Virus record (IMG/VR): IMGVR_UViG_3300045051_000172
Location: 1-64,000 of that record
DNA length: 64,000 nt
Source: a virus
Reading direction: 5' to 3' (one strand)
Of the stretch, positions 3,981 through 60,677 are shown one piece after another. A model generated the notes under the pieces. That model ran no database searches and was not told where the DNA came from. It saw nothing but the letters and a program-made list of their open reading frames with translations. The first letter of the stretch is position 1; every line of letters begins with the position of its first letter. Position numbers and translations under genes: made by a program.

Positions 3981-4571
3981 ATGAAAAACAGTTATCCACA
4001 TAACCCAAATGATGATTTGAATGTTGTAGATTATTTCCAAACCAGGCTTGATGAAGTCGCAAATCTCCTAACTGCGGTTCAAAAAGATTTGGCTCAATTC
4101 GGCTCCAAGGCTCGTCTTGATCGAGAGATGGAAGAGCACTTAAATGAAATCGAAGGCACCTTTACCGCTCGCTGGGACGCTGTTCGAGAAAGACTAGCAA
4201 ATGTTGTTGATGCCGTCACTAGAGTGAAACACTATTCTGAAGCGGTTCGAGAGAATCCCAAGGGACATCAAACTACTTGGACGACTGACGATAACGGCTA
4301 CACTTTTGCTTACGCCCAATTCCCAAGTACCTTAAAGAATCTGGCAAAGCGGCTCCTTGGGAAGCAACAGGATTTCAATGTGGTTTATTCTTTTACCTTT
4401 ACAAACAAAGAATTCCGAGATCACATTTTGAATGCGGCTCGACCAGACACTCCCTCCGAAGAGAGCCCTAAAGTTCCCTCAGAAGCGAGAGAAGATCTTT
4501 CAAAGCATTTCAACGCAGTCTCTGCGGCTGATGTCTCTGCTGACGCCGAAGCCGACAAGCATAAGGCATAA
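3981..4571 (+). CDS. hypothetical protein (coiled-coil N-half)
   Basis: ORF with GGAG RBS; helical heptad-like N-half. Confidence 0.7.
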   Translation: MKNSYPHNPNDDLNVVDYFQTRLDEVANLLTAVQKDLAQFGSKARLDREMEEHLNEIEGTFTARWDAVRERLANVVDAVTRVKHYSEAVRENPKGHQTTWTTDDNGYTFAYAQFPSTLKNLAKRLLGKQQDFNVVYSFTFTNKEFRDHILNAARPDTPSEESPKVPSEAREDLSKHFNAVSAADVSADAEADKHKA

Positions 4572-43763: not shown

Positions 43764-46460
43764 ATGGCTTCTAAGAACGCTTTTAAGATATCAAAATATC
43801 TGTCCATGAAACCTCAGGCCTCTGCGCCTTCTTCTCCAAATGATGGAGATGCTTACTACGATTCCGCTTTAGGAAAATTTCGTTTTAGACAAAATTCTGC
43901 TTGGGTTGAAGTCGGTTCCGGCAATGCCGAGAGTGCACTCTTACTCAGCTTGCTTCAATCCAACAATATGGAAGAAGCTGCTTTTTCAAGTTTTAATAAC
44001 GGTGAAGATGACATCATACGTTCGGCTGATGGTCAGAACGTAACTTTAGATTCTGCCAACGGACGATACTCAGCTTCTGCTGCCGGTGAATTTACTTACT
44101 GGGATGGTTACAGAGATCCTACTGCTGGAGCAACTAGCGAGCAATGGACCTCAAATGGTACTGCAACCGGACAATCTGTTGCGAATTCTGGCGGCGAATT
44201 TACAATCACCGATGCTTCAGTTTCAGGACGAAGAGCATATACAAAATCATTTACATCTTTGACGGGCACGGGAGACTGCGTACTCGAAGCCAAAATGAAG
44301 ATCACTTCTGAAACTACCTATGTCACTTACACGGGTTCCGATCAATGGACTGGACTCGGATTTCAAATTCGAGATGGTTCGAGAGACATTAGAGCAAATT
44401 TTATTCGAGAAGGTTCTTCTTCTGGAACAAGAGAATTAGTATTTGGTAATGCTGGATCTACCATCTTGAATGATGCTGATACTGGAGCTGCGCTTAGAAT
44501 TGTAGTAGATTACACTCAATATCACCTTTATCAGTTCTATAAACAAGGCACCAACTTATTGATCTACATTGACGGAGCCTATAAAGGTCGAGTCGCCACT
44601 GGGGGCTTTTCTTCAACTGCCTCTACTGATGTTTTCTGGGGTGGATATACAATTGATACCGCACAATCAGTTAGCGTGTGGCAATATGTGAATTTCAAAT
44701 CTTGGAAATCAATTTTAGCAACTAAGAATCTAAATTATCGCGGAACTGGAGCTTATGAAGGAGACGGTGATCCCGCCGCTGCTACTTCTTCCGGAACCAA
44801 CTTAGCCGGAGCCAATTTATTCTTTTTAGAAGATAACTGGGTTCAATGGACGGCAGATATCTCCGGACCTACTCCATCTACTGTAGTTTTTGGAAGTTCT
44901 AACGTGTCCACTTCAGTGACTCCTCAGTCAGCTCGAAGAATTGTTCTTTCTGGAGCACAGAGAGCTAACTGGTCCAGAACGGTATTTCCTGCGGAAGTAG
45001 TGGACGATGCTTCTTTAAGTTTTCAAGCCAACGTATATTTCGAAGCAATTAACTTCTTAGCTGGAGATTCTTGCTCCGTAATCTTGATGCGAGTTTTCAA
45101 TAAATCAATTCGAGTCATTCTTAAAAGAAGCACCGGATTGGCTTCAAATGTTCTGGAATGTGGTATTGCGGATAGCTCGGATACCTCATTCTTAACCACA
45201 AATGTCACTGGGTCAACGGGCTTTGTGACTGTTGGTGAAAGACATACTTTTGAACTTCGAAGAATTAACGCTAAACGATTTCAATTTCTTTTAGATGGAA
45301 AAGTTCAACAAGAAGTTGCTCAGTCAGATGCTAACTTAACTGCATCTACAGCAAATGATATTTTTTGGGGTAACGTATCGAACCTCAATGCTTCTTCTTC
45401 TATGACTTGGCAATGGGGTCATGTTCGATATACAGTAGGTCCGGATTCAATGCTTCCAAAATCTCCTCATAAAGAGTTTTTGGCTTTGTTAGATTATTCT
45501 GACACTTCCATGCATGTGAGCTTCAGTTCCGATAACGTGACTTGGTCTGTTCCAGTTCCAGTGTCGGATACAGGTGCCTCAGATTTTGTTGGAATAACTG
45601 GGCAACGTGCCGCAGGTTATGTATTTTCTCGATTTCTGTTTAACGCAGGAGGAAGTACCCCCTACTTAAACAACCTAGCGATCCTCTTCAATTCTGCAGC
45701 AGGAGCTGGAGGTTTAAGTAATCTTGCAGTTAAAACCTACACTACGACTGAAATTCCATCCGCTCCAGCTACGGTTACTTTCAACCATGGACTTAGTGTT
45801 TCTGAAGATGAAATTATAGTTTTTGGCGGAACTGAGCACTTAGTTAAAGATTTAGACTGGGCCTATTTATCAAGTGATTCCATTTCAATCATTAACGCAA
45901 ATCCCGGAGTTCCGTATACGGTTCGACGAGTAGGATTTAGCTTTGATCGAAGTTCCAGCAACTCGGATAGATTGGATGATATTGAACAAGTAATTAAAGT
46001 AGTGGCAAAAAGAATCACGTCTACTCAAACTATTACTGCTGGAACTAGCTGGGTAGAGCTTATTTATAACGGAGAGATTGAAGACACTACAAATTCTTAT
46101 GATCCAACAACAGGCAGATTTACTGTCCCAGAGGATGGAACTTACCTAGTTACTTGGGGCATGGATGCTCTCACGGGAGGAACAGTTCCCACTCAGTTAC
46201 AAGGAGCAGTACAAATTAACGGAAACTCAGGACCCGCAATCCCAAATGCCCATGCTCATGATTACATGAACCAAGGTGCTATTGTGGGTACTAACGCTGG
46301 GCGTGTTTTAAAAGGTTCTGCCATTCTTAAATTGAGCAAGAATGACTACATATCTGTTTGGGCCCAATGTACGAGTCAAAACGTATCTATGGATAACTTC
46401 TCAACTGATGTAGGTGCGTCGAGAATTGAAATTCAACGCATCAATCCAAAGAAGAGTTAA
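43764..46460 (+). CDS. tail fibre / receptor-binding protein with C-terminal C1q-like domain
   Basis: shared fibre N-terminal motif; lectin-like beta-rich middle; NSYDPTTGRFTVPEDGTYLV C1q-like signature. Confidence 0.75.
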   Translation: MASKNAFKISKYLSMKPQASAPSSPNDGDAYYDSALGKFRFRQNSAWVEVGSGNAESALLLSLLQSNNMEEAAFSSFNNGEDDIIRSADGQNVTLDSANGRYSASAAGEFTYWDGYRDPTAGATSEQWTSNGTATGQSVANSGGEFTITDASVSGRRAYTKSFTSLTGTGDCVLEAKMKITSETTYVTYTGSDQWTGLGFQIRDGSRDIRANFIREGSSSGTRELVFGNAGSTILNDADTGAALRIVVDYTQYHLYQFYKQGTNLLIYIDGAYKGRVATGGFSSTASTDVFWGGYTIDTAQSVSVWQYVNFKSWKSILATKNLNYRGTGAYEGDGDPAAATSSGTNLAGANLFFLEDNWVQWTADISGPTPSTVVFGSSNVSTSVTPQSARRIVLSGAQRANWSRTVFPAEVVDDASLSFQANVYFEAINFLAGDSCSVILMRVFNKSIRVILKRSTGLASNVLECGIADSSDTSFLTTNVTGSTGFVTVGERHTFELRRINAKRFQFLLDGKVQQEVAQSDANLTASTANDIFWGNVSNLNASSSMTWQWGHVRYTVGPDSMLPKSPHKEFLALLDYSDTSMHVSFSSDNVTWSVPVPVSDTGASDFVGITGQRAAGYVFSRFLFNAGGSTPYLNNLAILFNSAAGAGGLSNLAVKTYTTTEIPSAPATVTFNHGLSVSEDEIIVFGGTEHLVKDLDWAYLSSDSISIINANPGVPYTVRRVGFSFDRSSSNSDRLDDIEQVIKVVAKRITSTQTITAGTSWVELIYNGEIEDTTNSYDPTTGRFTVPEDGTYLVTWGMDALTGGTVPTQLQGAVQINGNSGPAIPNAHAHDYMNQGAIVGTNAGRVLKGSAILKLSKNDYISVWAQCTSQNVSMDNFSTDVGASRIEIQRINPKKS

Positions 46461-50808: not shown

Positions 50809-51513
50809 TTAGTCGTCTCCTCGATCCTCGGGAAAACAGTCTTTACAAGCTTCATCATTGCAAGGCGGTCCTTTTGCGAGATCCTCAAATAAGTCTGAGT
50901 GCTCGTCCATAATCTTCTTCGCAACTTCCATTACTTTAGATTTTCTTAAATCCAACACGGCCCTCATGGCTACTTCCATTTCTTCTACCGTAAGTTGCGT
51001 ATTCCTCATAATATTACAGCTTCCACAGCATGGCAAGACGTTAGAAAGCTCGTATCCCTTTGAATTGTCTATTCGATCCAAACTAGCTCCCGGGCCTTTT
51101 AATATTGGAGTAGAACAATAATGACAGGGTTTTCGAACCAGTTCGGAATATTCATTAAGGGTTAGTTCCCAAGATAAATTTCTCCTGCGAGCGTTGCTTC
51201 GAGCCAAGCCGAAACGAGATGAAATGTAATCTTTTCGTATCTTCTTTCTGAAACAATTCGAACAACTATTCTTTGTAGAACTTACTGTAATTCCGCAGTC
51301 CGGACAAGGTTCTCTTTTTTTACTTCGATTCTTTTTGACTGTCCTGGATGCGTAACAACCCCCACAGATGGGTCCCTTATACCAGCGAGAACTTCTAGTA
51401 ATCTCGCAAAGAGTGCATTTATTATCCTCCCTGGAAAGCATGTAACATGAGTGGCAAATTTTACCTCTATAGACTCTCGGTCCTAGCTGATTTTTACAGA
51501 GAGAGCAGGTCAT
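50809..51513 (-). CDS. multi-zinc-finger HNH-like endonuclease
   Basis: several CxxC pairs; PCHYC...LDRIDNSKGY...NVLPCCGSCNIMR. Confidence 0.75.
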   Translation of the reverse strand: MTCSLCKNQLGPRVYRGKICHSCYMLSREDNKCTLCEITRSSRWYKGPICGGCYASRTVKKNRSKKREPCPDCGITVSSTKNSCSNCFRKKIRKDYISSRFGLARSNARRRNLSWELTLNEYSELVRKPCHYCSTPILKGPGASLDRIDNSKGYELSNVLPCCGSCNIMRNTQLTVEEMEVAMRAVLDLRKSKVMEVAKKIMDEHSDLFEDLAKGPPCNDEACKDCFPEDRGDD

Positions 51514-51887
51514 TTTAAAAGATACGTCCTTTTCATTATCCACTCAGTAGCCTCTTTATCGTCTACGCTCCATGAGGGTTTACTCATAATCATATCTACA
51601 TAGGAAGTCAGTCCTAATCTTTCTATTACTTTTCGAGCCCAATGATGTCCCCCATCCGACCAAACTATGATAAAGAAATCTCTGGCAGCGAATTCTTTCA
51701 GAAGTTTTATGTGGGGAGTTATGGGAAAGAGGAGTTCACTGCGTCCCGGTTCTCCGAATTCAATAGGTGCGCTATCTCCATACAGCTTCTCTGTTGGAGT
51801 AACCAAGGTGTCATCAATATCAAAACAAGCAACTCTATCTGAGTTTACAAAGAGGGGGCCGAGAGAAGATGCTTTGTAGGTCTTCAT
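51510..51887 (-). CDS. HAD-superfamily phosphatase (capless, PNK-phosphatase-like)
   Basis: FDIDDTLV motif I, WSDGG, K, VDD. Confidence 0.8.
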   Translation of the reverse strand: MKTYKASSLGPLFVNSDRVACFDIDDTLVTPTEKLYGDSAPIEFGEPGRSELLFPITPHIKLLKEFAARDFFIIVWSDGGHHWARKVIERLGLTSYVDMIMSKPSWSVDDKEATEWIMKRTYLLK

Positions 51888-52618
51888 TTCTTTTCCTCCG
51901 GCTTCGGCAATAGATTGTTTTCGGCTAAGAGAACTTCTAGGGTTCGTCGGAATCTCTCATACAAAGACTGTCTCAGACGGTTTTGGGCTGAGATGCCAAA
52001 ACTCTCTGTGAACTTCTTTTCAATTTCTTTGACCGCCGCAAGGGCTTCTTCTTTGGAGGTCCAAGCATATTTCTTGTCGGCCTCAACTTCGAGGAACCTT
52101 CCGGTCTCTTTAAAATCCGTGTCGTAGGTAATATAGTAAACCCCGGTCGTATGGTTTTTGAACTTGTAAATCCAGCACATCTTGTAAATCTCGAAATTGA
52201 ATAGGTATCCGCGCTCGCGAGCTTCTTCGAGAACCTTGGACAAGTCAACCTTTAACTGGATCGCCGCATTCGAGGGTTGTTTTAAAACAGACCCCTTATC
52301 GATCCCCGTCATCTTTAAAAACTTGTTGTAGGTATTGATGTCAGAGTCCACTTCCAGATCGATCTCCTCGCGCACGTTGTTGTTGTGCTCGATGGTCTTC
52401 CTCTTAGAGGTCAACTCTCGGAATCCCGTTCCGGGCCCGCCTCGATCTCGAATGAACATCTCAAGGTTATCTTTGTGGGTGTAATAATAATCCCATGACC
52501 CGATTTCGATAAACTCGGCAGGCTCTAGGGATTCGAAGAATTTCTTAGCTTTTGAAAGGGAGATCTCATTGGCGAGATATTTAAACTCCAGTTCAGTAAA
52601 TTCAAAGAGTTCAGGCAT
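51884..52618 (-). CDS. CYTH (triphosphate tunnel metalloenzyme) domain protein
   Basis: ExExK (ELEFKY), DYYY, IRDR, LTSKRK, REEID, FLEVE. Confidence 0.8.
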   Translation of the reverse strand: MPELFEFTELEFKYLANEISLSKAKKFFESLEPAEFIEIGSWDYYYTHKDNLEMFIRDRGGPGTGFRELTSKRKTIEHNNNVREEIDLEVDSDINTYNKFLKMTGIDKGSVLKQPSNAAIQLKVDLSKVLEEARERGYLFNFEIYKMCWIYKFKNHTTGVYYITYDTDFKETGRFLEVEADKKYAWTSKEEALAAVKEIEKKFTESFGISAQNRLRQSLYERFRRTLEVLLAENNLLPKPEEKK

Positions 52619-54143
52619 ATATGATCTCCGCTGCGAATTGGTTTCTGTAAATGTCCAATCTTTCCTCCAAATGCCTTTCTTGGAATTTAGTTCCTTCGAA
52701 TAGAAAATCATGTACCCAACCAATGTCTTTACCTTCGGCCAAGCGTGCAACTCGTCCTACGGCTTGGGTAATCTTAATCTCAGACTTGCCGCCGGTCGCG
52801 AGCAATAAATGGTTGGTTGAATAAACATCAATGCCTTCTCCAATGACCGTAGATCCGATCATGTTGCGGAGTTCCTTTTTATTGAACGCTCGAATCGTTT
52901 CTTTGACGTGAGCCTTCTTGTCGTCCCCGGAAACGAACGTAGACTCAATCTTGTTGAGCTTGAGGTATTCTTGAATCAATTTGCCTGATCCGTCTTTTCG
53001 GTCTACTAGAGTAAGCATTTGATTCTCTTCTGGAACATCTTTAATAATGTTCAAAATTTTGTTCAATAATGGGACGCTACCACAATAATTCTTCTCGTAC
53101 TCTTTTTGGTAGTTCATCATTGCCTTACCCGGGAGCCGGTGAACGATGACTTTGATTGGAGTGATGAATCCATCTTCTACGGCTTTCCAGGCTGGATAGT
53201 GATACAGGCGATTACTGAGAACGCCCCAGAGGTCTAAAGTCTTCGAGTCGTTTCTTAAGAAAGTTCCCGTGAACCCATATCGATAATAAATGTGCTCCAG
53301 CATTGGAAGAAGATCTGTGTAAGATTTCGATGCCGCATGGTGAAATTCATCCATGATAAGCATGTTTACGTCGCCAATCAATTCGTGAAGAAGTCCGGAA
53401 TCTTGAAGGCTGGCTAGGGTCGCAACGGTGACGAAACGAATTGGCTTCAGTTTGGTCTTGCCCTTTTTGATATCGGCTGCTGAGATTACTTGAACGAAAG
53501 TTTTCCCAAAGGCTTCTGTAAAGTCATCGGCGGTCTGTTGCAAAAGGAAGACTGCTGGAATCACGATCAAGGTAGTGACTCTCTTATCGAAAGTGACCTC
53601 TTTCATCATGTAAGTTTTTCCCGATGCAACGCAGGACTCTACGACGCCTCGTTCTTCAACTCTCAAAATTTCCGCAACTTCAGACTGATAGTAACGTGGA
53701 GGCAAAGGCTCTACTTTCCATTTGAAACGATGTTCTTGCTTGGGTACGATCCGAAGATCTCTTATGGTGTATGCAGGAGCCTTGGCTTCTTTTAGGACGT
53801 TCTTAACGATGCCTATGAGCCCTGTAGGAAACCGATTGTCGTCCAAAAGCAAACAGGCCGTTTCTTCGGCCTCAAATCGACGCAGCATCGCCTGGAGCTG
53901 TCTAATGTGTCCCTCGATGTCTTGTCCCGTTTCCGCCATCTTTTTTGCCAGATATGGGGAGGGGTTGCCGGATCTCCGCGCCATGTGAGCAAACTTCAGA
54001 GCACGAAGAGTTTCAATCTTCTTCTGAGTTGCTTCTTCGTCTTTATACGTTAGAGCACTTCGGACATACGAAATGAAAGAGGCTTCGAAATCCTGCAAAG
54101 TGCAATACGAGTTCCTAAGAACTATTGTGGGGGATTTACCCAT
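52611..54143 (-). CDS. superfamily 2 DNA helicase (UvsW-like)
   Basis: ASGKT, DEFHH, TGT, GEGID, QAVGRVAR. Confidence 0.88.
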   Translation of the reverse strand: MGKSPTIVLRNSYCTLQDFEASFISYVRSALTYKDEEATQKKIETLRALKFAHMARRSGNPSPYLAKKMAETGQDIEGHIRQLQAMLRRFEAEETACLLLDDNRFPTGLIGIVKNVLKEAKAPAYTIRDLRIVPKQEHRFKWKVEPLPPRYYQSEVAEILRVEERGVVESCVASGKTYMMKEVTFDKRVTTLIVIPAVFLLQQTADDFTEAFGKTFVQVISAADIKKGKTKLKPIRFVTVATLASLQDSGLLHELIGDVNMLIMDEFHHAASKSYTDLLPMLEHIYYRYGFTGTFLRNDSKTLDLWGVLSNRLYHYPAWKAVEDGFITPIKVIVHRLPGKAMMNYQKEYEKNYCGSVPLLNKILNIIKDVPEENQMLTLVDRKDGSGKLIQEYLKLNKIESTFVSGDDKKAHVKETIRAFNKKELRNMIGSTVIGEGIDVYSTNHLLLATGGKSEIKITQAVGRVARLAEGKDIGWVHDFLFEGTKFQERHLEERLDIYRNQFAAEIIYA

Positions 54144-54176
54144 TCAATTAAAGGGTAAGATAGTTTACGGATTTAG

Positions 54177-54350
54177 TCAAGAAGGTTCCATACCAGTGAA
54201 CTTGTATTCCTCGTCCTCAGCATGTTCTATGGCCTTCATGAGTTCGAGCGCGTGCTGGACAGTCAGAGAATCTGCCATCTCTTGCGCGTTACGGCGAGCA
54301 TCCTTGGCCTTTATGAGCCCTTTAGAAAGCTCCGTACAAATGATACACAT
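54177..54350 (-). CDS. small hypothetical protein
   Basis: 57 aa MCIICTELSKGLIKAKDARRNAQEM... Confidence 0.55.
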   Translation of the reverse strand: MCIICTELSKGLIKAKDARRNAQEMADSLTVQHALELMKAIEHAEDEEYKFTGMEPS

Positions 54351-54354
54351 GAAA

Positions 54355-54555
54355 TTATCCTAAGAGTTTATAAGCAACTACGGCCAGGCCGAGCAGTAAG
54401 GCTCCAGCAGCAACAACTGCCGCCAATGCGGTTAATTGAGCCATTGCGACTCCGAGAGTAGCTTTATAGGCCACTTGAAAAGGCTTATCTGTTGCGCTCG
54501 CAATTGCTGCGATTACTTTTGAAGTTCCATCACTTTGTTGATTTGGATTTCTCAT
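54355..54555 (-). CDS. small membrane protein
   Basis: hydrophobic C-half. Confidence 0.55.
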   Translation of the reverse strand: MRNPNQQSDGTSKVIAAIASATDKPFQVAYKATLGVAMAQLTALAAVVAAGALLLGLAVVAYKLLG

Positions 54556-54668
54556 TGACCAACCCCTAAAAGACCAAGCAAAAGTCCTCCGATTACCAGA
54601 GTTGCTTGAATTGCAACAGTTACGATGATAAGTCCAATTCCTAATTTAATTCCGTCTACGATTGTCAT
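54552..54668 (-). CDS. small membrane protein
   Basis: 38 aa MTIVDGIKLGIGLIIVTVAIQATLVIGGLLLGLLGVGQ; overlaps both neighbours. Confidence 0.5.
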   Translation of the reverse strand: MTIVDGIKLGIGLIIVTVAIQATLVIGGLLLGLLGVGQ

Positions 54669-55015
54669 TATTTTTTCTCCTTAAGTTCTGATTCATCCAA
54701 CCAAACAGTAGCCTGAATTCCATTACCACATGAGATTCGTACCTTATAAGCATTGGATTTAATAGATAAACTTTCTTCGGCATCTCGTTTGTAGTAGTTT
54801 CTGAAATCTTCTATTCCAAAATTTTCGTTGGCGACGCAACGACGATAGGGAGATTCTGCGCCAAAAGAAACCTCAACGGTTTCACCTAGAGAGAATTTGT
54901 AAGGAGGAAAGGGAGTATGTTTTGGGACACAAAGATAAAAGGGAACCGCTATGGCTGCAAAAACTGCGACGACCGCCAACCCGCAAAGAAGGTTGTGTTT
55001 AACCGTCTTTTTCAT
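54668..55015 (-). CDS. membrane-anchored hypothetical protein
   Basis: N-terminal TM; SH3-like PYKFSLGETVEV. Confidence 0.65.
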   Translation of the reverse strand: MKKTVKHNLLCGLAVVAVFAAIAVPFYLCVPKHTPFPPYKFSLGETVEVSFGAESPYRRCVANENFGIEDFRNYYKRDAEESLSIKSNAYKVRISCGNGIQATVWLDESELKEKK

Positions 55016-55473
55016 TCATCATCCTCAGAGTCATCATTTAAAATATTATTTTTTGCGTATTCGATCAGATAGAGTCTGGGAGCAAAAACTGCTTTCAAAA
55101 GATTTCTAAATTGTCCGAGAATTTCGCCCAAAGCAAAGAAAGAAGCAACTATAGTGGCGACATGAACAAAATTCCAAAATCCATCCGGATATTTTAAGTA
55201 CCGTGGATCTTCTTCTGGATTAAGAGGAGTTATTTGATATTGGTGAATGAAATAAGAAATTGTTCCTAGGATCACTAGGTATACCAGGGCAACCCCCATT
55301 TGATAGAGGGAATCGTAGATTCCATCAAATTTTATGATTTCTTTACAAACTTGAGGAATCTCTTTTTTCGCAAAACTCTTGGCTTCTGACGCCGCACTTA
55401 AGATTCCCTCTGCTGAAGAATGCAAAAGTTTAGATAATTCTTTTTGAGCTGCTTTACTTACTTTCATTTTCAT
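55012..55473 (-). CDS. membrane protein, two TM helices
   Basis: two hydrophobic segments; ends APRLYLIEY. Confidence 0.65.
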   Translation of the reverse strand: MKMKVSKAAQKELSKLLHSSAEGILSAASEAKSFAKKEIPQVCKEIIKFDGIYDSLYQMGVALVYLVILGTISYFIHQYQITPLNPEEDPRYLKYPDGFWNFVHVATIVASFFALGEILGQFRNLLKAVFAPRLYLIEYAKNNILNDDSEDDE

Positions 55474-55666
55474 CCCCTCCGACTTTGATTGAAAATCCCG
55501 TCACTTTTCTCCAGTTCCATCCGAGCACTCCCCCAACTAACATGCATAAAAGTGTTCTAGTTCCAGAGGGTTGCATCAAGTTGTTGATAACCATTCCCGT
55601 CAAAAGACATGCAATTGTCAACGATGCGAAGTGTGATAGTCCGTGAAGAAATCCATTTTGCTTCAT
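55454..55666 (-). CDS. small membrane protein
   Basis: two short hydrophobic helices. Confidence 0.55.
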   Translation of the reverse strand: MKQNGFLHGLSHFASLTIACLLTGMVINNLMQPSGTRTLLCMLVGGVLGWNWRKVTGFSIKVGGDENESK

Positions 55667-55672
55667 GCATTC

Positions 55673-55713
55673 AGGTTAATGCACTTGATTCTTTTTGTCA
55701 ATCGGGGTATTCT
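55673..55713. promoter_or_regulatory. overlapping divergent sigma70 promoters
   Basis: minus TTGACA-N17-TAACCT; plus TTGATT-N17-TATTCT pointing into the structured RNA. Confidence 0.7.
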
Positions 55714-55719
55714 AAAAAA

Positions 55720-56185
55720 GTTCGGTGCCTTGGGACTAGGTGCGAATCCTAGCTTGCCTCATGAGGTGAAAACATTGTGAGGTACTGGTACAGGCGAATA
55801 GCTTGTGCTGAGGAACTAACCAAGAGGCACGTTAAATACTTTCTACCGCAGTTGACTACTGTGCGGTTAGAAGTACGCTCCAATGAGGTAACTCAAAGGA
55901 GTAGAATAGGCGAAGAGCTGATTGGTTCCATATCCTCAGTGTTAAGGGCTTTACTCTTAGGAACATATTTCCCTAAGATCCTAGACATCAGTTCCCAAAC
56001 TTATGAAGTAATTTCATGAGGTTAGGGAGCTTTTGTCTTTAAGGCTAGTAAACCTAAGCGGGACCAAGGGACACCACATGATAAATCGAAGGGTTGGAAG
56101 TTAGAGTTTACTGATGCGTCGGGCCATAGTGTCAAAATCCTAACGGGACACACTTTCAAGAATGTGGGCTAGTCTCCAAGCATTC
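55720..56185 (+). ncRNA. large (~460 nt) highly structured ncRNA candidate, family unassigned
   Basis: own promoter; ~13-bp 5'/3' closing helix; more than 10 internal helices, many with G-U pairs valid only on the plus strand; GNRA and T-loop-like loops; no credible CDS over most of its length. Confidence 0.7.
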
Positions 56186-56298
56186 AGATTCTTCCGATTG
56201 ATCCTCTTTTTGATTTCTTTCTTCACCCGAGCCAGGGTGACTTCTTTTAAAGTAATCTTTAATTTCTTTGCGAAATAATATTTAGATTCAAGAGTCAT
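56140..56298 (-). CDS. small basic hypothetical protein
   Basis: 52 aa MTLESKYYFAKKLKITLKEV..., ATGA-coupled; its 3' end overlaps the ncRNA 3' end in antisense. Confidence 0.45.
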   Translation of the reverse strand: MTLESKYYFAKKLKITLKEVTLARVKKEIKKRINRKNLNAWRLAHILESVSR

Positions 56299-56558
56299 TT
56301 ATCACCCCAATCGGCCCAATAGGACATCCAGTTCTCCTTCACAAACGGCTTATGTCCTCCTGAGTGAATGATGCAATCGCATTTTCTTTCCTTGGCTTCC
56401 TCGTCCGTCGCGATATCCGTGATGTCGTAATTCGCGAACTCGGATTGACCTGTTTTCATTTGACCGTACATTTTCTTGTGTCGCTCTATTTGAGCCAAGC
56501 GTTTCTTCCTCGTCATGGGAGCAACATTAGGCAGAGCCTTAGCTGATAAAACTTTCAT
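56295..56558 (-). CDS. hypothetical protein
   Basis: 87 aa, ATGA-coupled. Confidence 0.6.
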   Translation of the reverse strand: MKVLSAKALPNVAPMTRKKRLAQIERHKKMYGQMKTGQSEFANYDITDIATDEEAKERKCDCIIHSGGHKPFVKENWMSYWADWGDK

Positions 56559-56965
56559 TCAAATCGTAGTCCTAACTTTCTCAAAATAATGTGCGAATTC
56601 GTGAGAATCAAATTCATCACGTCTTCCTCTAAGTTAGGAGAAATCTTACGATTTTTCGAAATCACTTCTTTTGCCGTGTCCCGAATGGCCTCTAAAATCT
56701 CAACATCACTGAGAATCTTTTTGAGAGGTTCTGCCGGTTTAAGTTCGTAATCAGTCGCCTCGATATATTCGACGGACATAGATTCAATCTGACGATTATC
56801 CCCGTAGGCGATCCAGCGCATCCCATCTTTTTCTATTACTCGAAAGTAAGAGTCGTCACCGGGGCGCTTGAAAGGGACTCCAGTTTTGAGGGCTTCAAGA
56901 AAGGTAAGTCCAGGGCCCGGGCCCTCAGTTATTCCATATTGTGTAAGTTGTCGTCGCATGTGCAT
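56555..56965 (-). CDS. hypothetical protein
   Basis: 136 aa, AAGGAGG RBS; LTFLEALKTG..FKR motif. Confidence 0.7.
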   Translation of the reverse strand: MHMRRQLTQYGITEGPGPGLTFLEALKTGVPFKRPGDDSYFRVIEKDGMRWIAYGDNRQIESMSVEYIEATDYELKPAEPLKKILSDVEILEAIRDTAKEVISKNRKISPNLEEDVMNLILTNSHIILRKLGLRFE

Positions 56966-57293: not shown

Positions 57294-57357
57294 GGGGCTT
57301 TAAGGTATCTCACTCTCTAGCCTTGACCGGGCCTGGTCCCCGTGAGAAAATGAGGGT

Positions 57358-57666
57358 ATGGAACTCGTAATGGAAATCATAGGCTGGATCGGATCGATGG
57401 CCTTCGCAGTGTGCGCCGTTCCTCAGGCTTACGATTCTTGGAAGAAAGGTCACTCGCGAGGAATTACTTGGGGCTTCTATCTTCTTTGGGTCATCGGCGA
57501 AATCTTCACGCTTCTCTATATCATCCCGACTGGCAAAGTTCCCCTCCTCGTAAATTATCTCGTCAATTTGGTTTTCCTCACAATCATCGGATATTACAAA
57601 GCCTACCCACGAAAAAGAACCCGGAAGAGTCACTCTCGCAGATCTCATTTAACTGTGGTGAAATAG
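57358..57666 (+). CDS. PQ-loop (semiSWEET-like) membrane transporter
   Basis: IIGWIG..AFA...VPQ....WK.G.S.GIT; three TM helices; PLLVNY. Confidence 0.85.
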   Translation: MELVMEIIGWIGSMAFAVCAVPQAYDSWKKGHSRGITWGFYLLWVIGEIFTLLYIIPTGKVPLLVNYLVNLVFLTIIGYYKAYPRKRTRKSHSRRSHLTVVK

Positions 57667-58967: not shown

Positions 58968-59009
58968 TTTGACAATTTGCCCTGTTCCCGATACATTTTA
59001 GGGAGACTT

Positions 59010-60677
59010 ATGACTTTAAATCCAAAGAAAATTGCTCAAAAAAACGAGATGGCCGACAAAATGAAAGTTGGCATTTCCCTCGTTGCTTCCATCGTTAAAC
59101 GTACTTTAGGGCCCGGAGGTCTTCCGATCCTAATCGAACGAAATGGACAGAACTTAGAAGGTGATCCTCTTGAGCCCATGATTACGAAAGACGGAGTCAC
59201 CGTCGCAAACGAATGTGCCTCAGACGACCCCGAAGTTGATCTCACTATTCAAACCGTCAAAGCAATTTGTAAGAAAACAAATCGAATCGCTGGAGATGGA
59301 ACTACGACCGCGATTGTTTTAGGTGAGGCTTTATATCTTGAAACTCTCAAAGAGCTGGATGCTGATTCAAATTTGAATCCTCAGATTGTTCGAGAAGAAT
59401 TAGAATTGGCAATCAAAGACGTAGTGGCTGAACTTGAAAAAGTTGCAGTACCTGTAAAAGATTTCGCACGCATTGAACAAGTTGCAAACATTTCTGCAAA
59501 CGGTGAAAAAGAAATCGGCTCAGTAATTCGGGCCGCTTTCGAACACGTTGGAGCTGAAGGCGTCGTCACTATCGATGAAGGTTCCTCAATTGAAACCACG
59601 ATTGATCGAGTTGAAGGTTTTCAATTTGCTCGCGGAGCCGAATCTCAAGATCGTTTTTTCAATAACAAAGAGAGAACTAAGTTCGAAGCCAAAGATGCTT
59701 TGGTAATTATCTATGACGGCAAGATCGACCACAATGGAAAACTGGTCGCGGTCATGAATACGATTTCAAAAGAATTCGCAACTGCCGGAGGCGGCATCGG
59801 AGCCTTCCCGCCAATTTTAATCATTGCGAATGATTTCAGTTTAGATACTCTTCAACTCCTTCTAATCAATAAAGCCGAATCAGGATTAAATTTCTGTGCG
59901 GTTCGAAGTCCCAACACGACTACGATTCGTTCCTTGATGCTTGACGATCTGGCGGTATATCTCGGCGGAACCAAGCTGGGCAATGGAGGCAAAGACCTTC
60001 AATCAGCCGAATTTAAGATTTCCAAGGACCAAAACGGAAAGATGGTTTTTACGGGCGACATCGGATTTGTCTCTTCAGTTATTGTGGATCGCTACAATAC
60101 AACCCTATTCGGAGGCGGAGGAACTGAACAAGCCGTCACTGAAAGAGTAGACCAATTGAATGCCTCCAAAGAAGCCGCCTTCAGTGAATACGACCGCTCG
60201 ATGATTAATGATCGAGTTGCTTCCCTCACAGGTGGAATCGCCAAGATTGGCGTAGGTGGACGGACAGAGTTAGAAATCAAAGAAAAATATCATCGCATTG
60301 AAGATGCCTTGAATGCTTCCCGAGCCGCCATTGAAGCCGGAGTTATCCCAGGAGGAGGCGCGGCCCTTTTCCGAATTGCCGATCAATTGAGTAAGTCCGA
60401 CACTGTTGGCCATAGAATTCTTTCGAAGGCTCTCAAGTCTCCCATATTCCAAATCTTGGATAATATCGGGATCGCTCATGAGAGTCTAAATTTAGATCAG
60501 CTTAAATCTGATCCTACTTTAATTTTCGATGCCCGCAACAAAAAGTTTGTTGATGCATTTGAGGCCGGAATTATCGATCCCTTAAAAGTAACCGTAACTG
60601 CACTTGAGAATGCCGCATCCATTGCCGGACTTCTTTCGACTTGCGGCGGCGGGATTACTTATCTGAGAAAGGTTTAA
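59010..60677 (+). CDS. groEL: GroEL-like phage chaperonin
   Basis: TLGPGG, ITKDGVTVA, GDGTTT, GVIPGGG, GIIDP.KV; GGGAG RBS before ATG 59010. Confidence 0.92.
   Translation: MTLNPKKIAQKNEMADKMKVGISLVASIVKRTLGPGGLPILIERNGQNLEGDPLEPMITKDGVTVANECASDDPEVDLTIQTVKAICKKTNRIAGDGTTTAIVLGEALYLETLKELDADSNLNPQIVREELELAIKDVVAELEKVAVPVKDFARIEQVANISANGEKEIGSVIRAAFEHVGAEGVVTIDEGSSIETTIDRVEGFQFARGAESQDRFFNNKERTKFEAKDALVIIYDGKIDHNGKLVAVMNTISKEFATAGGGIGAFPPILIIANDFSLDTLQLLLINKAESGLNFCAVRSPNTTTIRSLMLDDLAVYLGGTKLGNGGKDLQSAEFKISKDQNGKMVFTGDIGFVSSVIVDRYNTTLFGGGGTEQAVTERVDQLNASKEAAFSEYDRSMINDRVASLTGGIAKIGVGGRTELEIKEKYHRIEDALNASRAAIEAGVIPGGGAALFRIADQLSKSDTVGHRILSKALKSPIFQILDNIGIAHESLNLDQLKSDPTLIFDARNKKFVDAFEAGIIDPLKVTVTALENAASIAGLLSTCGGGITYLRKV

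Follow-up and report, generated by a model that had tools for sequence, protein, structure and literature searches.

What does a phage genome hold in the gene-free gap between two of its small genes? The gap in question separates the stop codon of a 52-aa ORF (position 56140) from the start codon of a 70-aa ORF (position 55666). It lies in the first 64 kb of a 119,478-bp IMG/VR virus record that is rated complete, and this stretch of 64,000 nucleotides is hereafter called the window. A sequence-only reading had placed in the gap a new structured RNA of ~460 nt (55720-56185), driven by a dedicated promoter and likened to the large phage RNAs ROOL and GOLLD. The non-coding character of the region, its strand-specific fold, its lack of a match in Rfam 15 and its conservation in a relative hold up; the 460-nt extent and several of the 3' helices do not. 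The gap probably harbours a separate plus-strand gene for a structured non-coding RNA, on the joint grounds of fold strength, strand bias, absent coding signal, conservation and sequence changes that fit the structure.

All neighbouring genes from 50809 to 56965 are encoded on the minus strand, and the two that border the gap are the following.

55454-55666, minus strand: gene of a 70-aa two-helix membrane protein, transcribed away from the RNA and kept together with it in the relative.
56140-56298, minus strand: 52-aa basic ORFan taken from the ORF list, last gene of the upstream minus-strand operon, converging on the RNA.

The genes nearby encode an SF2/UvsW-like helicase, a dUTPase and a GroEL-like chaperonin, together with several small membrane-protein ORFans. 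The same DNA is met again in rhizosphere metagenomes. Cultured phages are distant at best: tblastn of the neighbouring genes against phages returned remote matches only, with best protein identities of 26.6% (helicase) and 38% (chaperonin), and no related phage. The 52-aa ORF has no homologue in the protein database, where it matches itself only, and ARAGORN finds no tRNA gene in the window, nor anywhere else in the 119-kb genome.

Other genes of the window deserve a brief description. The chaperonin (58977-60677, plus strand) is a Cpn60_TCP1 protein, the 38% being its identity to the best phage matches. The plus-strand interval 57358-57666 codes for a 102-aa PQ-loop membrane protein (PF04193, E = 1.5e-10), and a 112-aa minus-strand ORF (57310-57648) overlaps this gene and competes for the same DNA. 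An 898-aa protein (43764-46460, plus strand) possesses a C-terminal C1q-like domain (PF00386) just under the cut-off, and may be a tail fibre or a receptor-binding tip.

Codon usage shows the region to be non-coding. The ORFs within it score -0.24 to -0.64, like off-frame DNA, as against -0.06 to +0.18 for the flanking small genes and +0.32 for long genes. A spurious 80-aa ORF inside the RNA matched itself only in a protein-database look-up.

The fold is the second line of evidence. As plus-strand RNA, the interval 55720-56185 reaches -156.1 kcal/mol (z = -4.07), compared with z = -1.9 for the minus strand. In a genome-wide scan of ~2000 windows of 240 nt, corrected for base composition, 55801-56040 (plus strand) is the strongest fold outlier, with z = -4.76. 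The 353-nt core described below (55724-56076) has on the plus strand an MFE of -131.9 kcal/mol and z = -6.50 against 100 dinucleotide shuffles, the values for the minus strand being -102.1 kcal/mol and z = -3.54. Among the 115 predicted core pairs, 16 are G-U and correspond to C-A mismatches on the other strand, so the plus strand is the RNA strand if the fold is real.

The second-strongest outlier of the genome, 117250-117620, is located outside the window. Among its inverted repeats are exact and nearly exact copies of the palindrome TTGGGACA-N6-TGTCCCAA and a GC-rich terminator hairpin. The region was rejected as a related RNA gene: these are DNA palindromes with the look of an operator or regulatory region.

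The strand figures bear on whether the structure might instead belong to a minus-strand messenger, as the long intergenic spacer or 5' leader between the operon of the 136-, 87- and 52-aa genes and the 70-, 153- and 115-aa genes, where it would be a cis-regulatory or processing element. The shared orientation of the genes from 50809 to 56965 suits this idea, as does the z of -3.5 that the minus-strand core still displays. A 241-nt contig of a run labelled as cDNA, but rated probably DNA, also covers the promoter region together with the first 140 nt. However, the plus strand folds far better (z -6.5 vs -3.5, -131.9 vs -102.1 kcal/mol), the 16 G-U pairs are mismatched on the minus strand, and TTGACA-17-TAACCT stands directly before the 70-aa gene, so that a long leader is unneeded. 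A messenger origin of the structure is unlikely.

For the structured RNA itself, the following elements are predicted or discussed.

55724-56076, plus strand: 353-nt core of the structured RNA, with the revised helix P1 closing it.
55724-55733, plus strand: P1 5' strand, GGUGCCUUGG, pairing with 56064-69 and 56072-75.
55736-55752, plus strand: T-loop hairpin, with a CUAGG stem, a UGCGAAU loop and a CCUAG stem.
55756-55783, plus strand: hairpin H2, GAAA tetraloop at 55768-71, pair probabilities 0.96-1.0.
55787-55809, plus strand: hairpin H3, GAAUA loop, inner pair probabilities 0.95-1.0.
55808-55940, plus strand: multi-helix domain closed by CUGAGGA/UCCUCAG and AACCAA/UUGGUU, pair probabilities 0.95-1.0.
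55945-55982, plus strand: hairpin H9, AGGG/UCCU and UCUUAGG/CCUAAGA, probability 0.35-0.98, varying with the 3' boundary.
55983-56038, plus strand: 56-nt imperfect rod hairpin with a GUAAU loop.
56064-56075, plus strand: P1 3' strand, CCAAGG-GA-CACC, within the block conserved in the relative.
56077-56136, plus strand: 3' tail, conserved in the relative, predicted pairings shifting with the boundary chosen.
56169-56182, plus strand: 3' strand of the closing helix first proposed, inside ORF 56140-56298, outside the conserved block and excluding the T-arm.
56223-56250, plus strand: terminator-like hairpin and U-run, from a consensus scan.

All the sequence elements listed in the sequence-only reading lie where it placed them, and much of the interior that it drew is recovered. 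GCCTCAT/GTGAGGT, GTACAGGC/GCTTGTGC, CTGAGGA/TCCTCAG, AACCAA/TTGGTT, CCGCA/TGCGG and TGAG-GTAA-CTCA pair with probabilities of 0.9-1.0 for any 3' end, and the rod is found in every minimum-energy fold. The multi-helix domain, which holds a hairpin at 55837-75 and the GUAA-capped hairpin at 55877-55902, is the best-folding window of the genome. Other pairings drop out: TAGTAAAC/GTTTACTG has a probability <=0.02, that of GACAC (56070) with GTGTC is ~0, and the suggested pseudoknot CCTAAC/GTTAGG has its CCTAAC partner at 56139, outside the conserved block. The repeated AGGCGAA(T/G)AGCT is lost in the relative, its first copy changing from GAATA to TAATT.

The boundaries of the RNA also need revision. 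The helix originally proposed to close it, 55726-39/56169-82, shares CTAG 55736-39 with the T-arm (55736-52), and the two are mutually exclusive. Its probability is ~0.9 only if the sequence is cut at 56185 and 0.0 if it is run to 56250, while its 3' strand falls in ORF 56140-56298, beyond the end of the block that the relative conserves. The segment 56169-56182 is probably not part of the conserved fold of the RNA, and the ~460-nt extent and its boundaries are probably wrong. The predicted 10-bp helix P1 (55724-33/56064-75) appears to be the better closing helix: it forms in the folds of 55720-56136, 55720-56250 and 55724-56076, and is compatible with the T-arm. The hairpin at 56223-56250 could conceivably mark the transcript end, giving an RNA of ~530 nt; terminator-like sites are no commoner than in shuffles.

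The T-arm was likewise part of the first proposal. Its sequence is present, and one of its A-U pairs is swapped to U-A in the relative, but its thermodynamic probability is ~0.1 and forcing it costs 2 kcal/mol. We take the UGCGAAU loop with its closing G-C to fit the tRNA T-loop pattern U-N-C-R-A-N-N.

Relatives were found only in public sequencing runs, X2 being identical and X3 and X4 diverged; no RNA run was among those listed as carrying this DNA. X3 provides a 907-nt contig that aligns to 55464-56136 and is unlike the window beyond on both sides; X4 provides a 241-nt contig over 55616-55860 with the same changes as X3. With X2 identical and the changes of X3 and X4 in common, the three runs amount to one independent relative lineage. 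What this lineage, from two other metagenomes, has in common with the window is exactly the 70-aa gene and the non-coding block; the adjacency of the 52-aa ORF to the RNA is not kept.

The block 55720-56136 is ~94% identical in the relative, with 26 substitutions in 417 nt (6%). The promoter spacer and flank (55674-55706) carry 10 substitutions in 33 nt (~30%), and 12 of 32 third codon positions are changed in the variable part of the 70-aa ORF (hand count). Substitutions number 20 in 55532-55628, 10 in 55720-55931 and 16 in 55932-56136, and there are patches of zero divergence at 55464-55531 and 55629-55673. Given this patchiness, the low divergence of the block may partly reflect recombination history. 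Third codon positions take 12 of the 20 changes in 55532-55628 (counted by hand), which confirms the 70-aa ORF as a gene. In the non-coding block, 5 nt are deleted at 55720 and single-nucleotide indels occur at 55950, 55961 and 56083, by which reading frames would be broken.

The changes can be placed on the predicted structure. Two of them, 55738 A>T and 55750 T>A, turn a T-arm A-U pair into U-A and make the sole true compensatory pair, while 55744 G>A leaves the fourth position of the T-loop a purine. A G-U pair of H2 becomes A-U (55756 G>A). In H3, only both ends of the GAAUA loop change (55796 G>T and 55800 A>T, GAATA to TAATT). The changed positions 55851 (loop), 55929 and 55931 (internal loop) are unpaired, and the deletion at 55950 and the insertion after 55961 both fall in H9 loops. 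The sole disruptive change mapped is 55886 A>T, through which the 4-bp GUAA stem loses one pair.

Eleven of the 12 mapped changes (10 substitutions, all within 55720-55931, and 2 indels known in 55725-55982, from one lineage) fit the T-arm model: the compensatory pair, the G-U to A-U change, six loop substitutions and two loop indels. When 10 substitutions and 2 indels are placed at random, one disruptive change or fewer has P ~0.001 under the T-arm model and three or fewer P ~0.05 under the unconstrained MFE, with the proviso that the T-arm model was adopted after the compensatory swap was seen, the arm itself having been proposed beforehand.

The changes at 55738, 55744, 55750 and 55756 are also all at synonymous third positions of a 45-aa plus-strand ORF (55643-55780). 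These four changes, and the absence of homologues beyond close relatives, are what could be expected of a very small protein gene, or several, hidden in the region, or of a non-functional spacer with a chance fold. The 5-nt deletion breaks the 45-aa ORF in the relative, and the 1-nt indels break ORFs in the same way. The internal ORFs score as non-coding, the region contains the top fold outlier of ~2000 windows, and its 6% divergence stands beside a spacer diverged by 30%. We regard a chance fold or hidden small genes as very unlikely.

Expression of the RNA would depend on a promoter that is interleaved with that of the 70-aa gene.

55685-55713, plus strand: putative promoter of the RNA read from the sequence, with -35 TTGATT (55685-90), a 17-nt spacer and -10 TATTCT (55708-13), predicted start near 55720.
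55673-55701, minus strand: putative divergent promoter of the 70-aa gene, also read from the sequence, with -35 TTGACA (55701-55696), 17 nt and -10 TAACCT (55678-55673).

The claim of a dedicated promoter stands in that the plus-strand hexamers are present and unchanged in the relative, with 10 changes around or between them in 55674-55706; TTGATT-17-TATTCT matches only 8 of 12 consensus positions, under the threshold of the promoter scan. The minus-strand promoter ends 6 nt before the ATG at 55666. In the relative, its TTGACA is unchanged and the changes at 55674/55675 turn the -10 TAACCT into TAAGAT. Over 55673-55713 the two putative opposite-strand promoters are interleaved, each -35 being located between the -35 and the -10 of the other, and RNA polymerase could probably occupy only one at a time. 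Elsewhere, TTGACA-N18-TATTCT at 57751-80 ends 10 nt before the ATG (57791) of a 233-aa plus-strand gene (phrog_4243). As TATTCT also precedes this gene, it may be a working -10 in this phage, and the mRNA of the 233-aa gene would be leaderless or near-leaderless if the promoter at 57751-80 is used.

Does the RNA belong to a known family? Novelty had been made to hang on an Rfam search, and cmscan against Rfam 15 assigned no family at gathering score anywhere in the window. At E<=10, the interval 55500-56400 yielded on both strands a single 13-nt chance match. ARAGORN found no tRNA or tmRNA gene on either strand, permuted forms included, and the T-arm is followed by no acceptor-strand partner or CCA. 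The absence of RNase P, tmRNA and group I/II intron signatures reported by the sequence-only reading was confirmed by these searches: the bacterial RNase P RNA models (RNaseP_bact_a/b) give no match at E<=10, and ARAGORN is blank. A group I or II intron was rejected, there being no model match, with flanking genes on the opposite strand and a 70-aa protein that is complete by itself, as its homologues align from residue 1.

Searches for homologues gave the same picture. There was none for 55650-56250 by blastn against 50,697 phage records, none in 185,579 species genomes, and none by exact-pattern scans of IMG/VR contigs, which returned only one short contig (L002) and nine chance 17-mer matches. 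Scans of JGI metagenome contigs gave 23 matches to the T-arm pattern, all in unrelated coding DNA or tRNA-like 3' ends, and scans with the neighbouring proteins as queries found no related locus. The short contig L002 possesses at 4060-4287, on its minus strand, a GC-rich leader upstream of a same-strand ORF. The start of this leader, GGUGC-N4-GGGAC followed by the T-arm, is like that of the window RNA, and the two are unlike past the first 40 nt; the leader has a weak, sub-threshold match to Betaproteobacteria-1 RNA (27.7 bits vs 49.4). Three metagenome contigs (L013, L015 and L019) carry tRNA-like 3' ends with a UGCAAAU T-loop, then an acceptor strand and CCA, and may represent tRNA or tmRNA genes in which loop position 2 is G.

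The 70-aa protein gives a wider view. A protein-database look-up matched it to itself only, whereas a full HMMER search detected seven remote homologues, with alignments starting at residue 1. Their loci (L035-L042) are replication modules of diverse uncultured phages, the gene being typically located between PolA/dGTP-diphosphohydrolase-like and RecA-like genes. The family is small and unnamed, with a conserved G-x-x-x-G-W/F-N-W-x-K-x-T-G-F motif. The seven contig sets with these homologues have no RNA-sized gap beside the gene and no other shared neighbours, and nhmmer over the loci fetched found no RNA homologue, one 13-kb contig with a 1.16-kb gap being left out. Insertion of the region between genes that are adjacent elsewhere was considered and rejected, the neighbours not being homologous. 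As far as these data go, the RNA appears to be confined to one narrow phage lineage.

The T-arm invites comparison with the T-loop modules of tRNA, RNase P RNA and cobalamin riboswitches, with which it shares a 5-bp stem with a closing G-C pair and a loop of 7 nt (UGCGAAU) that follows U-N-C-R-A-N-N, the remainder of the RNA matching none of these families. We take GGGA-stem-UGCGAAU-stem-GC to resemble the T-loop arm of cobalamin riboswitches, and the E. coli btuB leader presumably has the same seven loop letters. Unlike in tRNA, where the T-arm precedes the 3' strand of the closing helix, the arm here follows the 5' strand, and no tRNA-like acceptor/T minihelix is therefore formed. A cobalamin riboswitch was rejected: RF00174 and RF01689 give no match at E<=10, no plus-strand gene lies downstream before 57358, and only the T-loop arm is similar.

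Alternatively, the RNA could have diverged very far within a known class: cobalamin-riboswitch-like aptamers, RNase P RNAs, two-piece tmRNAs and Y-RNA-like tRNA mimics come into question. This reading is favoured by an arm that recalls both the cobalamin riboswitch and the tRNA T-arm, and by the tRNA-like 3' ends with the same arm returned by the metagenome pattern scan. Against it stand the 13-nt chance match of cmscan, the blank ARAGORN result and the lack of a downstream plus-strand gene for a riboswitch. Furthermore, TROVE/Ro60 (PF05731) and RtcB (PF01139) are absent from the genome, the control genomes being positive, as is reverse transcriptase (PF00078), which removes the Y-RNA-like and RT-associated RNA readings. 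Membership in one of these classes is most improbable.

The location of the 70-aa homologues in replication modules raises another alternative, a replication-origin element. Promoter-driven origin transcripts occur in ColE1 (RNA II) and in T4 (oriF/oriG). Here, a transcript from the promoter would act as a replication primer or as part of an R-loop, and conservation would reflect constraint on the DNA or R-loop. The gene of the UvsW-like SF2 helicase is 1.6 kb away, and the cumulative GC skew is at a broad minimum plateau at ~56-64 kb. However, this skew signal is weak and flat, and the element contains neither iterons nor an AT-rich unwinding stretch, the AT-richest 100-nt windows nearby (at 55011, 56201 and 57161) all lying outside the conserved block. 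The single 12-nt repeat is lost in the relative, and the loop changes together with the compensatory pair indicate a folded RNA rather than duplex DNA. An origin element is quite unlikely.

ROOL, of ~580 nt, and GOLLD, whose 3' region is universally conserved, assemble as homo-oligomeric nanocages (octamer or 14-mer). They are RNA-only particles joined by kissing loops and A-minor contacts, typically encoded beside tRNA islands in phages and prophages, and many GOLLD members exceed 800 nt (PMC12286853). The candidate resembles ROOL (RF03087) and GOLLD (RF01998) in being phage-encoded, several hundred nucleotides long and rich in helices with GNRA-type loops. It differs from them in other respects: neither covariance model matched, even at E<=10, it is shorter (350-415 nt, with a conserved block of 417 nt), it has no tRNA setting in a genome devoid of tRNA genes, and no obvious self-complementary hairpin loop was noticed by eye among its predicted loops. 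The candidate belongs to neither family, and the data support neither kinship with them nor a shared setting.

The preferred reading, a separate RNA gene, can be formulated as a model in which we infer the promoter, the RNA ends, the tertiary roles of the T-loop and GNRA loops and any function. A structured RNA gene would lie on the plus strand within the gap between two minus-strand genes, and would be transcribed from the sigma-70-like promoter TTGATT-17-TATTCT, interleaved with the divergent promoter of the 70-aa membrane-protein gene. Its conserved unit would be 55720-56136, with a core (55724-56076) closed by the 10-bp pairing of GGUGCCUUGG with CCAAGG-GA-CACC. This core would comprise a long rod, a junction domain of several helices, the T-loop hairpin and two further hairpins with GNRA caps, GAAA and GUAA. 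The RNA may act via a three-dimensional fold that is compact and in which T-loop and GNRA loops are engaged in long-range contacts. It could be a scaffold, a decoy or a protein- or RNA-binding particle during infection, rather than a coding or a simple antisense transcript.

Large, intricately folded RNAs without an assigned function are among the least understood phage gene products, and the RNA-only cages of ROOL and GOLLD have been shown only recently (PMC12286853). The present candidate carries recognisable tertiary-contact modules (a T-loop, GAAA and GUAA tetraloops) and comes with a promoter hypothesis, and its ~350-nt core is short enough for easy transcription, probing and imaging. On a bolder and rather doubtful view, it would found a new class of phage RNA, as a self-sufficient particle organised by its T-loop and GNRA loops, either self-assembling like ROOL and GOLLD or serving as a decoy for a host factor that handles tRNA or acts in RNA-binding defence. 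Such an RNA would be inherited with the small membrane protein as a two-gene cassette, in which only one promoter would be usable per template at a time.
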